DNA of 64,000 nucleotides from a virus (Duplodnaviria > Heunggongvirae > Uroviricota > Caudoviricetes). The notes beneath the pieces were generated by a model. It saw nothing but the letters and a program-made list of their open reading frames with translations. It was not told the origin of the DNA and made no database searches. This document shows positions 56,445 through 64,000 of the stretch, piece after piece. A program made the translations under genes and the position numbers. Numbering within the stretch: position 1 is the stretch's first letter; each line of letters opens with the position of its first letter. The DNA is taken from IMG/VR virus record IMGVR_UViG_2897328257_000003; one strand, written 5' to 3'.

Positions 56445-56559
56445 TGATTATACTGGAATCCAGTTGAGTGTTTATCACTCAATGCAAACGAGGCTGAAAA
56501 GGATTGCCGTCCTTTCGCAGCCTCTGACCACCAACGATAGCGAAAGTATCGAGGTAGCT
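56445..56559 (+). promoter_or_regulatory. Conserved control region (copy 2) with palindrome TTGAGTG-N5-CACTCAA (56464-56482)
   Basis: Near-identical to 44836-44952. Confidence 0.5.
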
Positions 56560-56763
56560 ATGAGAAATCATATCACACACCCGCAAGGGCGGGACTCGCA
56601 CAACCTGAATAAATTCACCTGGCGTTTTATCGCCCTGAGCACGGCACAACCGCGCGTGATTACCATTGAGGCCACCAGCGAACAGGAAGCACGCCTGCAA
56701 TCCCCGGCTGGCTGCGTGATGGTATTCGCTGCCCGTATTCGTCAGGGGGGGTGCCATGCCTGA
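56560..56763 (+). CDS. Hypothetical small protein (homolog of 44953-45153)
   Basis: Same SD and start context; N-terminus conserved, C-terminus divergent. Confidence 0.5.
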   Translation: MRNHITHPQGRDSHNLNKFTWRFIALSTAQPRVITIEATSEQEARLQSPAGCVMVFAARIRQGGCHA

Positions 56764-57076
56764 CATGACCAATTACCAGTACCTGATTAATCCGCATTTT
56801 AACTGTGAGCATGATATTGCTAAAAAGGTTTATTCCGCTGCGGATGGGGCTACTGACAATATATCAATGGCTGTTTCGTCAATTGGTAGCCTGATGTGGT
56901 ATGCGTCAGAAAATGAGGAATATGACGAAAAGGCCATGCGCATTGACATGGGGAATATTGGCTTGTTACTGGCAATGCTTGGGCAGTTTGATATTTCGTT
57001 ACGGTGCACCATTGAAAATGCCACAGATGCATTAAATGCCATAAAGAAAGCGAATACTGATTCAAATCGGGGATAA
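56756..57076 (+). CDS. Hypothetical protein (106 aa), island-2-specific variable-slot gene
   Basis: Six-frame ORF in the same slot as island-1 ORFs 45146-45754 but unrelated in sequence. Confidence 0.45.
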   Translation: MPDMTNYQYLINPHFNCEHDIAKKVYSAADGATDNISMAVSSIGSLMWYASENEEYDEKAMRIDMGNIGLLLAMLGQFDISLRCTIENATDALNAIKKANTDSNRG

Positions 57077-57082
57077 ATAATC

Positions 57083-57382
57083 ATGAGAACATATTTATCT
57101 GGCTTGACTGCCAGCGGTTATGCACACCCCAAAATTATCCCCGGCGCTATTTATCTGGATAAGAACGGTAACAGAGTAACGGTAAAAGAACTGATGTTTG
57201 ACCGTGTGTATTTTATCCGTGATGGCTATTCATTTCTTAGTTCGCTGAACGTGGAGATCTTTATTAGCAGATTCAGGCGGGAAATCCCGCTTTCCAGAAA
57301 TAACCATGTGTCATGTATGGATGTTGATAAAAAACTACAGGAACTAAAAAACATGATTGCCGCGTGGAGAGAGCAGAAATGA
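57083..57382 (+). CDS. Hypothetical protein with GLTASG motif (99 aa)
   Basis: Counterpart of 45760-46059; stop overlaps primase start. Confidence 0.5.
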   Translation: MRTYLSGLTASGYAHPKIIPGAIYLDKNGNRVTVKELMFDRVYFIRDGYSFLSSLNVEIFISRFRREIPLSRNNHVSCMDVDKKLQELKNMIAAWREQK

Positions 57383-59196
57383 AAAAAGCGCCAAATTTAA
57401 AACACCAGCCACGTGACAAAATGATGGAAGTCATCATTTTTGCGGGTAGTGATGCGTGGGCACATGCGAAGCAATGGCAGGAACAGGACGGGCGACTGGC
57501 TGGCGACAGCGTGCCTCCTGTCTGGCTTGGAGAGCAACAACTTGCCGAACTGGACAACCTGCAAATCGTACCGGACGGACGCTATCGCGTGCGTCTCTAT
57601 CAGGCGGGGTTATTGCGTCCGGGGCTTGTTAATACCATCGGGCAGAAACTGGCAGCGGCAGGTGTCAGGGATGCTGATTATTACCCTGAAGGAATGCACA
57701 GCCAGAAACGGGAGAACTGGCGCGAATATCTGGAACGTGAACGGGCAGAGCAGGCGGAAAAGAAAAAGGTAGTTGAACTGCCTGTAAAGAAAAAAGAGCG
57801 GGTAAAAGACGATAACGCTTCATCACTGGCGCTTAACCAGATGGGAGCAAGTCAACGCGGCGAAGTTCTCCTGGCACATTATGGCGGTGAACTGGCGATT
57901 CATGCTGACTCTGACACTGTTCACTATTACAACGGCGTTGTATGGGAGCCAGTACAGGATAAAGAATTACAGCGAGCTATGGCACAGATTTTCATTGATG
58001 CGGAGATCAGCTATTCGCAGAACGCCATTAAATCGGCGGTCGATACCATGAAGTTAAGTTTGCCTGTAATGGGGAATACAGCCCGTAACCTGATTGGATT
58101 CAGTAACGGTGTTTTTGATACCCGGACAGGCGATTTTCGGGAGCATAACAAAAACGACTGGTTGTTAATTGCCAGTGAATTACCTTTCAGCCCACCAGCA
58201 GAGGGGGAAACGCTGGCAACACATGCGCCGAATTTCTGGAAGTGGTTACGCCGTTCGGTGGCTGAGAATGACCGCAAGGCGGATCGCGTACTGGCTGCAT
58301 TATTCATGGTGCTGGCGAACCGGTACGACTGGCAGTTATTCATTGAGGTAACAGGTCCAGGGGGAAGTGGTAAAAGCGTGATGGCGGAGATTTGCACCAT
58401 GCTGGCGGGTAAGGCCAACACGGTATCGGCAAGCATGAAGGCGCTGGAAGATGCCAGGGAACGCGCGTTAGTGGTTGGCTTTTCGCTGATTATCATGCCG
58501 GATATGACCCGTTACGCTGGTGATGGCGCAGGAATTAAGGCCATTACAGGCGGTGACAAGGTGGCAATCGACCCGAAGCATAAAGCCCCCTACTCAACAC
58601 GCATTCAGGCGGTAGTGTTGGCGGTGAACAATAACGCCATGTCATTCAGTGACCGCAGCGGGGGGATTTCACGTCGTCGGGTGATATTCAATTTTTCGGA
58701 GGTTGTACCGGAAAACGAACGCGACCCCATGCTGGCAGAAAAAATAGAAGGAGAGCTGGCGGTTGTGATTCGCCACCTGCTTACTCGTTTTTCTGACCAG
58801 GACGAAGCTAAACGCCTGCTGTATGAGCAGCAGAAATCAGAAGAAGCTCTGGTGATAAAACGCGAGGGCGATTCGCTGGTGGACTTCTGCGGCTATCTCA
58901 TGTCGTCGGTAATGTGTGATGGTCTGTTAGTGGGTAATGCCGAAATTATTCCGTTCAGTCCGCGCAGGTATCTTTATCACGCCTATCTGGCATATATGAG
59001 GGCACACGGATTCGGTAAACCTGTAACACTGACGCGCTTCGGTAAAGATATGCCGGGGGCAATGGCGGAATATGGCAGGGAGTATATGAAACGGAAAACG
59101 AAGCACGGTTTGCGTTCAAATGTGACCCTGACAGAGGATTCAGAAGACTGGATGCCATCATGTGCATCGGTCACAAATGACGATGGAAAAAATTAA
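57379..59196 (+). CDS. P4-family phage/plasmid primase / replication initiator (island-2 allele)
   Basis: About 605 aa; Walker A FIEVTGPGGSGKSV; N-terminus and C-terminal domain related to island-1 primase, middle divergent; start refined to MKKAPNLK; six-frame ORF starts at 57364. Confidence 0.85.
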   Translation: MKKAPNLKHQPRDKMMEVIIFAGSDAWAHAKQWQEQDGRLAGDSVPPVWLGEQQLAELDNLQIVPDGRYRVRLYQAGLLRPGLVNTIGQKLAAAGVRDADYYPEGMHSQKRENWREYLERERAEQAEKKKVVELPVKKKERVKDDNASSLALNQMGASQRGEVLLAHYGGELAIHADSDTVHYYNGVVWEPVQDKELQRAMAQIFIDAEISYSQNAIKSAVDTMKLSLPVMGNTARNLIGFSNGVFDTRTGDFREHNKNDWLLIASELPFSPPAEGETLATHAPNFWKWLRRSVAENDRKADRVLAALFMVLANRYDWQLFIEVTGPGGSGKSVMAEICTMLAGKANTVSASMKALEDARERALVVGFSLIIMPDMTRYAGDGAGIKAITGGDKVAIDPKHKAPYSTRIQAVVLAVNNNAMSFSDRSGGISRRRVIFNFSEVVPENERDPMLAEKIEGELAVVIRHLLTRFSDQDEAKRLLYEQQKSEEALVIKREGDSLVDFCGYLMSSVMCDGLLVGNAEIIPFSPRRYLYHAYLAYMRAHGFGKPVTLTRFGKDMPGAMAEYGREYMKRKTKHGLRSNVTLTEDSEDWMPSCASVTNDDGKN

Positions 59197-63074: not shown

Positions 63075-63300
63075 CAGACGCGCAATTATTGAACAAAAAT
63101 GAGAAAGGATCTGATAATGGCATTTTCTGGCTAAAATGCCTCGTGTCAGATCCTTTCTTTTTTTAATATTTTCATTGTTAAACAGTCTGTTACAGAGAAG
63201 AAGAACGGATCTGACTTTTGCCGGAAAATTTTCATAAACAGATAAAATCCGCGAGGTCGCCGCCCCGTAACGGGCCATAATTCCAGGAAGGACCCGACGA
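63075..63300 (-). promoter_or_regulatory. Lambda-type cos site 2 in inverted orientation, with lambda-like cosQ, cosN and cosB (R3/I1/palindrome)
   Basis: Minus-strand reading: cgggtccttcc...cgttacggggcggcgacctcgcggattttatctgtttatgaaaattttccgg...ccgttcttcttc...aaaagaaaggatctgaca...tgtcagatcctttc, colinear with lambda cos 1-190 as remembered; cosN complement AGGTCGCCGCCC at 63254-63265. Confidence 0.7.
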
Positions 63301-63329
63301 CACCAGGCTATCAGAACGATGGGGGCACA

Positions 63330-63611
63330 ATGACAGAAGCCGAACTACTGCGATTAATCCGCCGCGTTACCGGAATCAGCCAGCAGCATGACGAACAGGG
63401 CACGCAACCGGACAGCGTGACCGCTGAAAATTATGCGCGTGTTGTTGCTGAGGTGATGCGCCGTGATGGTATTGAGCTTAACGGCGTGGATATGCGCAAC
63501 ATACGAACCAGAGTCCTTGAGTTGCTGGCATACCGTCGCCGCGTGGAGATGTATCGGGAGAAGGAGAAAATCACGTACCACTGGAAGAAGCCGGAACGGT
63601 TGCGGCGGTAA
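63330..63611 (+). CDS. Conserved hypothetical 93-aa protein (homolog of 55738-56019)
   Basis: SD gatggggg; near-colinear with island-1 copy. Confidence 0.6.
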   Translation: MTEAELLRLIRRVTGISQQHDEQGTQPDSVTAENYARVVAEVMRRDGIELNGVDMRNIRTRVLELLAYRRRVEMYREKEKITYHWKKPERLRR

Positions 63612-63820
63612 CTCACTGAGATTAAAGCAAAGCTCAAAATTGCGCTGGCTGAATGATCATTATGATTACTTATGTTTACGCAGATGATTAAGGCCTAAAC
63701 CGTTGATTATTCCACAATCCCCCATTGGGGGAAGCTGGCGGTAACTGGTTGAACTTAAAGCAAAGCGCAAAATTGCGCTGGCTGAATAATCATTATGATT
63801 ACGCAGATGATTAAGGAATG
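63600..63820. repeat. Two direct repeats of about 80 bp flanking a CCCCCATTGGGGG palindrome
   Basis: Unit cggcggtaact...ttaaagcaaagc.caaaattgcgctggctgaat.atcattatgatta...cgcagatgattaagg at 63600-63695 and 63733-63815; motifs shared with island-1 right end. Confidence 0.55.
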
Positions 63821-64000
63821 ACCGAAGGCGGAAATTCGCCTGTGGTTGATGGGGGAGTTGCAGATCTGCAACTCGACCATGAAATTACGGAAACTACCCG
63901 TAGTTTGGGTAGTAAGAGCAACACCCAGATTTTGGGGCTTACTCGTGATACCCAAATTTGGGGTATCGGCGGCAACCATAACGACTTTCGTTACGGTTGA
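63818..64000 (+). CDS. Hypothetical 60-aa ORF overlapping a repeat-rich region; coding status doubtful
   Basis: Six-frame ORF; region contains palindromic motifs (ctacccgtagtttgggtag, cccagattttgggg, cccaaatttgggg), so it may be non-coding. Confidence 0.2.
   Translation: MTEGGNSPVVDGGVADLQLDHEITETTRSLGSKSNTQILGLTRDTQIWGIGGNHNDFRYG

Follow-up and report, generated by a model that had tools for sequence, protein, structure and literature searches.

An island segment in an IMG/VR record as a probable terS-type member of the EcCICFT073/O-island 51 satellite family

Gene content of the island segment

The DNA considered here is a stretch of 64,000 nucleotides, the window, recorded in IMG/VR as a virus of the Caudoviricetes (IMGVR_UViG_2897328257_000003). 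Our subject is the island segment at its right end, 56445-64000. It holds a primase gene with an origin of replication, genes for a major capsid protein (MCP) and a decoration protein (Dec) of lambda type, and a small terminase gene (terS) between two cos sites (Table 1). We argue that it carries the replication, "capsid" and packaging genes of a phage-inducible chromosomal island (PICI) of the classical Gram-negative kind. It would belong to the family of EcCICFT073 and O-island 51 (CP-933C, Sp7), in the form that carries terS, and would be packaged into helper heads with its own TerS. We put the probability of this reading at about 0.9.

The open reading frames (ORFs) were scanned against Pfam and PHROG, and the small ones against NCBIfam as well. 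The initial annotation had described a PICI-type backbone made of a control region, a P4-family primase with an iteron origin, SSB and a PerC-like regulator. All of these are present where it had placed them. It had also reported that portal, scaffold/protease, large terminase (TerL) and tail genes are lacking, and no ORF scanned in 56445-64000 matched any of these families. Lysis families found no match among these ORFs either. Every assigned ORF of the segment is on the + strand. What remains is a set of gpE, gpD and Nu1 type genes with a lambda cos. Without the other head and tail genes the island must borrow from a lambdoid helper, one with a cos of this kind and a gpA-type TerL. In this respect the earlier description of a PICI-type satellite that takes the rest of its head and its tail from such a helper holds.

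The genes follow the order of a known family. This order is Icd-like ORF, DUF4222 protein (RgdR family), D5/P4 primase, iteron origin, SSB and PerC, then 68-aa ORF, MCP, Dec, cos1, packaging gene, inverted cos2 and 93-aa ORF. The islands of CFT073, JNEC-KY172 and O157:H7 agree in it except for the packaging gene, the replication gene (in O157) and optional ORFs. SatelliteFinder lists five core PICI components: integrase, regulator, primase-replicase, capsid morphogenesis and small terminase (PMC10085698). Judged by this list and by Fillol-Salom 2018, 56445-64000 has the primase with an adjacent origin, the capsid homologue and the small terminase. Its genes are unidirectional and include no tail, lysis, portal or TerL gene. 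The size of a complete relative, ~11.3 kb, is within the expected range of about 10-20 kb. As for the integrase, the 3' end of int is in a separate block of the window (43253-44212), and the complete relative has int.

Table 1. Positions of the features of the island segment and of the other blocks of the window
Feature	Position	Strand	Evidence or content
Icd-like cell-division inhibitor ORF	56560-56763	+	NCBIfam phage_ICD_like E=3.9e-19; matches annotated Icd-like CDS in the JNEC-KY172 locus (L001)
106-aa ORF	56756-57076	+	phrog_15327 E=2.2e-71, full length; no match in Pfam and NCBIfam scans
DUF4222 protein, 99 aa	57083-57382	+	Pfam DUF4222 E=9.8e-17
P4/D5-type primase-helicase (pri-rep)	57364-59196	+	Pfam D5_N, DUF5906, Pox_D5; phrog_864 DNA primase E=2.5e-193
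Iteron origin of replication	59195-59437	both orientations	at least 10 copies of GGTGAACAGT/ACTGTTCACC, directly 3' of the primase gene
81-aa ORF	59484-59729	+	phrog_1231 E=1.1e-49
SSB	59726-60136	+	Pfam SSB E=2.6e-16
PerC-family transcriptional activator	60147-60395	+	Pfam PerC E=3.4e-35
Terminator-like hairpin	60418-60435		after PerC; terminator scan
68-aa ORF	60650-60856	+	stop overlaps MCP start codon; phrog_3255 E=8.4e-37
Lambda gpE-family MCP homologue (c1499 orthologue)	60856-61911	+	Pfam Phage_cap_E (PF03864) E=4.7e-51, 174 bits (cut-off 22.9)
Lambda gpD / phage 21 SHP-family decoration protein homologue (c1500 orthologue)	61923-62258	+	Pfam HDPD (PF02924) E=1.8e-17, 64 bits (cut-off 29.1)
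c1501-homologue deletion scar	62268-62349	+	~350 bp of L001 (14557-14905) missing
Rho-independent terminator-like hairpin	62330-62349		before cos1; terminator scan
cos1	62356-62520	+	cosQ-like segment, cosN 62387-62398, I2-like segment, island-specific cosB
Nu1-family TerS, 180 aa	62532-63074 (ORF from 62520)	+	Pfam Phage_Nu1 (PF07471) E=1.5e-22, 80 bits (cut-off 30); phrog_57 E=3.1e-51
cos2	63130-63312	-	inverted; exact cosN copy 63254-63265
93-aa ORF	63330-63611	+	last conserved gene of these islands; no match in Pfam and NCBIfam scans
Block A	36270-43241		potB, potA, pepT, roxA and tyrosine integrase
Block B	43253-44212	+	3' end of int (allele other than that of block A) and alpA
alpA (block B)	43684-43872	+	Pfam Phage_AlpA E=5e-18
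Block C	44836-56433		capsid-forming PICI: primase, capsid, portal, TerL
D5-type primase (block C)	46056-47804
HK97-family capsid (block C)	49338-50540
Portal (block C)	51154-52365
TerL (block C)	54063-55724
Last ORF (block C)	55738-56019		DNA 88% identical to the last ORF of the island
Block D	56445-64000		island segment under study

Relatives and status of the island

The closest complete relative is an island of E. coli JNEC-KY172 (locus L001), with 96.4% identity over 96% of the query. It is ~11.3 kb long, carries int and alpA, and is flanked by the two halves of a split tqsA. Its end lies ~300 bp beyond what corresponds to the last base of the window. Of 5426 complete E. coli genomes, 598 (about 11%) carry the module of 68-aa ORF, MCP and Dec, in every case at full length. 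CFT073, Nissle 1917, ATCC 25922, O55:H7, O145 and O157:H7 are among the carriers. Matches to the terS cassette occur in 798 genomes, and in 516 of these they span at least 80% of it. For the rppA cassette the number is 175 (53 at a coverage of at least 80%), which is a lower bound for rpp as megablast would miss rppB and rppC.

EcCICFT073 is the prototype, with int and alpA ahead of its Icd-like ORF. It shares the backbone, the gene order, the terminator before cos1, the two inverted cos sites with a lambda-identical cosN, and the last 93-aa ORF. It differs first in the gene between the cos sites. There it has rppA (c1503, 144 aa), whereas the island has a Nu1-family TerS of 180 aa without detectable similarity to RppA. 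The core of cosB is ACCACCACC there and GGTGGTGGT here. EcCICFT073 has c1501, and the homologue is deleted here. Its primase is distantly related to ours, with a match of ~400 bp at 72%.

The islands of O157:H7 and JNEC-KY172 are alike in carrying terS. Both have the run of 68-aa ORF, MCP, Dec, hypothetical ORF, cos1, terS, cos2 and 93-aa ORF, and both retain the c1501 homologue that the window has lost. The terS cassette of the O157 island is 94% identical to that of the window. The O157 island differs in having a RepA-type helicase instead of a D5-type primase, and an RGD-bearing RgdR. Its site is the roxA-phoQ interval, and it repeats the arrangement of MCP, Dec, hypothetical ORF and TerS. 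This island (strain 1130) is likely O-island 51, the "cryptic prophage" CP-933C or Sp7 that encodes RgdR, because the locus is shared with EcCICFT073 and EcCICFT073 has been linked to O-island 51 in the literature (PMC6092414, PMC3378721).

The island is therefore the canonical form of its family and not an exception to it, and it is already known. EcCICFT073 has the same order and genes, and a capsid gene is a core PICI component. The initial annotation took the capsid and Dec genes to be what separates this island from the Rpp-type E. coli PICIs. This is not supported, since the prototype EcCICFT073 carries both (96% and 97% identical). Any novelty goes the same way, with a capsid gene in 21 of the 29 reference Gram-negative PICIs (PMC10111431) and with capsid morphogenesis and terS both counted as core components (PMC10085698). 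The genuine difference from EcCICFT073 is the TerS in place of Rpp, which had been listed without being singled out.

A more distant island carries the most divergent MCP allele (82% nucleotide identity). It is a PICI embedded in a prophage (L006, NZ_CM143727.1, 1819-12100) and sits between head-tail joining genes and P2-like baseplate genes, like the helper-embedded PICIs of PMC10111431. Its helicase is of RepA type, and a 146-aa ORF replaces TerS.

The capsid and decoration module

The calls of a gpE-like protein and a gpD-like protein at these positions were borne out by the profile searches (Table 1). PHROG places the MCP with the major head proteins (E=5.9e-108). It is 42% identical to lambda gpE (PDB 7VI9, E=3.8e-81), and its best phage match is 46% (Gifsy-1). 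It is 96% identical to c1499 of EcCICFT073 and to PDB 3BQW, which is the crystal structure of c1499. Dec is 97% identical to c1500 and 38% identical to lambda gpD. In the PDB it matches 1TD0 (Head decoration protein, E=2e-13) and lambda gpD 1C5E (E=3.3e-10).

Both proteins are under purifying selection. Over 8 alleles, with dS up to ~1 and every copy intact, the ratio of nonsynonymous to synonymous divergence (dN/dS) comes to 0.106 (MCP) and 0.091 (Dec). Since the copies are intact with low dN/dS, and since the best phage match is just 46%, the MCP is an old and satellite-specific lineage that has been kept by selection. It is not debris. Residues 164-201 of the MCP (61345-61458) are a more divergent mosaic patch with several allelic versions among the islands. 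Synonymous divergence per site (pS) in the patch is 0.64 against ~0.23 elsewhere, about threefold. We considered positive selection here and ruled it out, because synonymous divergence is raised too and pN/pS is 0.21, as expected of a recombination mosaic.

All 8 islands compared have the 68-aa ORF at this place, as alleles that have diverged (dN/dS 0.28). One form is found in the window and CFT073 and a second in JNEC-KY172, O157 and three others, with a dN of ~0.19 between them. That of the prophage-embedded island is more divergent still. The pattern of GVSVYISPDIV and then two helices suggests a ribbon-helix-helix DNA binder or regulator. A scaffold like CpmB or Nu3 was dismissed by eye, as no likeness to lambda Nu3 was seen and the ORF resembles a DNA binder. 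No profile match backs either the ribbon-helix-helix or the scaffold reading.

Downstream of Dec the c1501 homologue, 137 aa in the relatives, has been deleted at a GATGGCA direct repeat (62268-62276). EcCICFT073 tolerated an insertion in c1501.

MCP and Dec are a conserved accessory module under purifying selection. Its role might be size redirection, interference at the capsid level or that of a spare E gene in helper-embedded relatives. Nothing computed here supports any of these three, and no later functional assignment of c1499 or c1500 was found in the literature searched.

The packaging gene and its cos sites

The packaging gene is bracketed by two inverted cos sites, and the cassette between them varies among islands, holding terS or rppA. 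The initial annotation was right to report a lambda-type cos and a Nu1-like TerS. It overlooked the second, inverted cos. In cos1 the cosN is exactly that of lambda, GGGCGGCGACCT, and an alignment shows the cosQ and I2 flanks conserved in lambda and in the helper prophage of CFT073. The island-specific part is cosB. At 48-65 bases from cosN (62434-62451) cos1 reads TGTGGTGGTGGTTTTGTT, and phage N15 reads GAGGTTGTTGTTTAATCA at the same distance. This is where a review by Feiss and Murialdo puts the R3 site of PICIs (PMC9026076). N15 is like the island in having a GGT(G/T)GT(G/T)GTTT motif at the R3 position, and it differs in cosN, which is GGGCGGCGTCCG in N15 and the lambda sequence in the island. 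The inverted cos2 keeps a stretch like lambda R3, CCGTTCTTCTTC, that cos1 lacks. Judging by this stretch, cos2 would let a terminase of lambda type recognise the island from the other side. The 2019 Rpp paper also left the role of the inverted cos2 as a question (PMC6739421).

TerS stands where EcCICFT073 has rppA. It aligns with lambda Nu1 along its whole length at 40% identity and is 48% identical to N15 gp1. In the winged-helix DNA-binding domain (residues 1-52) identity is 59% to N15 and 37% to lambda, and beyond this domain the identity to N15 gp1 is 42%. The C-terminus aligns with the TerL-binding region of the lambda and N15 TerS proteins (LPQILADYLNE against IPGLLSEYIEQ).

Rpp proteins are ~144-153 aa long, have a winged helix-turn-helix and a coiled coil for dimerisation, and are without the C-terminal 30-40 residues for TerL (Fillol-Salom 2019). 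They are shorter than TerS at just the end where Nu1 binds TerL (PMC9026076). The packaging protein of the island does not fit this description. That it is an Rpp was ruled out, as it is a full-length Nu1-family protein of 180 aa with a BLASTP E of 1.3 against RppA and no significant PDB match. A phmmer search of the PDB at E up to 1 found no terminase or Rpp chain (the RppC entries, by their depositors' assignment, are 6HLK and 6HN7). No Rpp-like protein was found among the other ORFs of the segment, and no Ppi-like partner among the ORFs scanned.

Aligned cos sites show one cosB in terS-type islands and another in rpp-type islands, and it changes along with the packaging gene. The R3-equivalent core of the terS-type island has its reverse complement in the Rpp-type island (L003 ~37596-37613), a few bp further from cosN.

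Packaging into helper heads

Helper-dependent induction, packaging and transfer at high frequency have been shown by experiment for EcCICFT073 only (PMC6092414). If our island behaves in the same way, a lambdoid helper would turn on alpA and the island would excise and replicate from its own iteron origin. The gpA-type TerL of the helper would cut the concatemers at the lambda-identical cosN, and the DNA would enter heads made by the helper, probably of full size. These steps are taken from the EcCICFT073 experiments.

The next steps are our own proposal for the terS form. Packaging specificity would come from the island's own full-length Nu1-family TerS, and not from an Rpp that re-programmes the TerS of the helper. 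The N15-like winged-helix domain may bind the motif in cos1 that resembles N15 R3, which stands at the canonical distance from cosN. The Nu1-like C-terminus may recruit the helper TerL directly, in which case the helper TerS would not be needed. The terS form could then be seen as the cos-type counterpart of the pac-type Staphylococcus aureus pathogenicity islands (SaPIs). In those the small terminase of the satellite also selects its own DNA and uses the helper TerL (PMC6739421). The difference is that their TerS is of the headful (pac) kind and is aided by Ppi, whereas the island is cos-type with a lambda cosN.

The initial annotation proposed instead that the island redirects capsid size by replacing the MCP. 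The published work on the prototype speaks against this. Deleting c1499 or c1500 left the transfer of EcCICFT073 and its interference with lambda unchanged, and the mutants transferred normally from the prophages of CFT073 too (PMC6092414). Size redirection was ruled out for EcCICFT073 with lambda, as the particles contained DNA of phage size (PMC6092414), and a review by Dokland repeats that it is absent (PMC6893505).

Several points weigh against our reading and should be set beside it. The size result comes from EcCICFT073 with lambda, and the transfer results from lambda, phi80 and the CFT073 prophages, none of them with this island. No experimental study of a terS-type E. coli PICI was found in the literature searched. 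The binding of TerS to cos1, the recruitment of TerL and the independence from helper TerS are predictions made from sequence. The int and alpA genes and both ends of the island are outside 56445-64000, and the linkage of 43253-44212 to this segment comes solely from its likeness to L001. Finally, no helper phage is visible in the window, the first 36 kb of which are N.

Comparison with other satellites

The family of the island shares int, alpA, a replication backbone and an encoded capsid protein with the capsid-forming PICIs (cf-PICIs) of the EcCIEDL933 type. These differ in encoding an HK97-family capsid, protease, portal, connectors, HNH, TerS and TerL, and they make their own small heads. 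The island has just MCP, Dec and TerS. The TerL, portal, protease and connectors that define a cf-PICI are absent from 56445-64000 and present in block 44836-56433. P4-like satellites are defined by sid, psu, delta, epsilon and a cos of P2 type. The P4/D5 primase is all that the island shares with them, and its cos is of lambda type. The Pfam and PHROG scans of 56445-64000 gave no match to the Sid, Psu and Delta families.

Alternative explanations for the capsid genes

One can imagine that MCP and Dec act on the helper. They might be poison or decoy subunits that interfere with particular phages, or a spare capsid gene for PICIs that integrate in the helper E gene. The MCP lineage is satellite-specific, with a best phage match of 46%. 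Helper-embedded PICIs insert in lambda-like late genes, most often E, and their own E homologue may be a backup (PMC10111431). One such embedded island was seen among the relatives (L006). The strong effect of Rpp in EcCICFT073 could also hide a weaker effect at the capsid level. However, the deletion mutants did not restore plaquing of lambda (PMC6092414), most copies are at chromosomal sites and not in prophages, and nothing computed here ties MCP or Dec to interference. We consider this explanation unlikely, though not negligible.

A broader speculation is that the operon of 68-aa ORF, MCP and Dec might remodel capsids, build small or mixed ones, or block their assembly, with a class of natural helpers other than those assayed. 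Separately, the terS form might package without helper TerS through an N15-type pair of TerS and cosB on a lambda cosN. Lambda, phi80 and the CFT073 prophages revealed no phenotype of the operon, yet it is intact in ~11% of complete E. coli genomes. We regard the idea as a rather long shot.

Size redirection as such would have the gpE-like MCP and its gpD-like partner replace or mix with the helper MCP and give small capsids for a genome of 8-12 kb. The model for this is SaPIbov5, a cos-packaged satellite whose Ccm is likewise a homologue of a helper-type MCP and redirects capsid size (PMC6893505). PmCI172, too, has a capsid homologue and forms small capsids (PMC6893505, PMC6092414). Both genes of the island are intact at dN/dS ~0.1 and full length in 598 genomes, so they are functional in some way, and the size and transfer assays covered lambda, phi80 and CFT073 prophages only. 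The difference is that size redirection and interference have been demonstrated for Ccm, and the orthologues of the island MCP showed neither in the assays done. The EcCICFT073 proteins are 96-97% identical, their deletions were neutral for transfer and interference, and the particle DNA was phage-sized (PMC6092414). No scaffold encoded by the island was found, and the 68-aa ORF appears to resemble a DNA binder. This makes small capsids of this origin highly improbable.

A decayed lambdoid prophage that happens to keep E, D, Nu1 and cos has next to no chance of being right: O-island 51 was first annotated as a cryptic or degraded prophage (PMC3378721) and all four packaging and head genes are in lambda families, but E precedes D (D precedes E in lambda), cos separates both from Nu1, no phage in the collection searched exceeds 46% identity to the MCP or TerS, and hundreds of genomes carry the module in a uniform and intact state, under purifying selection and attached to the P4-type primase, iteron origin and alpA backbone that EcCICFT073 uses for helper-dependent transfer. 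We rule it out, since the relatives are bounded 11-kb elements at several att sites with genes that are intact and selected.

Other genes of the island

The iterons are in the position of the PICI origin that was defined by experiment (PMC6092414). The Icd-like ORF belongs to a control region common to the cf-PICI block, and the NCBIfam scan of the small ORFs gave nothing besides this match. The DUF4222 protein shares its position and length with RgdR (C1493/ECs1581), of which it is a distant homologue, 34% identical to the O157 protein. It has PGA in place of the RGD motif of that protein. The RGD motif is functionally important in RgdR, a regulator of the locus of enterocyte effacement that is encoded by O-island 51 (PMC3378721). 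An ORF in the position of the 81-aa ORF is also found in EcCICFT073, L001 and O157. The PerC match begins at residue 41 of a GTG ORF, which is the ATG at 60147. In EcCICFT073 (89%), L001 and the O157 island the region of the last gene matches the DNA over the 93-aa ORF. This DNA also has 88% identity to 55738-56021, in the last part of the cf-PICI block. An Rfam scan of 36270-64000 gave no family at gathering thresholds.

Make-up of the window

Letters are present only at 36270-64000, after an N run at 1-36269, and 58% of the window is N. Further N runs at 43242-43252 (11 N), 44213-44835 and 56434-56444 (11 N) divide the rest into the four blocks of Table 1. Block A is the chromosomal context of EcCICFT073 in CFT073. 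Block B is 99.6% identical to 6932-7891 of L001, the best relative of the island segment, and by this likeness it is probably the left end (int 3' end and alpA) of the same island. The right end of block C matches the right junction of EcCICFT073 near phoQ, so block C probably occupies the roxA-phoQ site seen in block A. The island segment, block D, begins right after the 11-N spacer and runs into the end of the window.

The initial annotation placed the island next to an HK97-type cf-PICI. The cf-PICI is present at 44836-56433, but adjacency in the genome is not established by this because the block ends overlap. About 136 bp of the reference island occur twice, at the end of block A and again where block B starts. 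Blocks C and D open at one homologous point, with 56445-56630 and 44838-45023 98.9% identical over 186 bp. Since the ends overlap or duplicate one another, the order and adjacency of the blocks are unreliable. They look like contigs that were broken at a repeat common to two PICIs and then laid side by side.

In CFT073 (NC_004431.1; L003 1-22821) a lambdoid prophage lies directly upstream of potB, beside the PICI site. The 36-kb N run of the window is in the equivalent position.

Conclusions

The value of this island as a discovery is small. It comes from one of the best-described E. coli satellite families, hundreds of complete genomes carry it in their annotation, and its capsid protein is known as a crystal structure, that of c1499. 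The MCP and Dec pair of the classical Gram-negative PICIs is kept by selection. More complete genomes match the cassette of the terS form than match the rppA cassette, and the arrangement of TerS and cosB in this form predicts that these islands would be packaged without the TerS of the helper.

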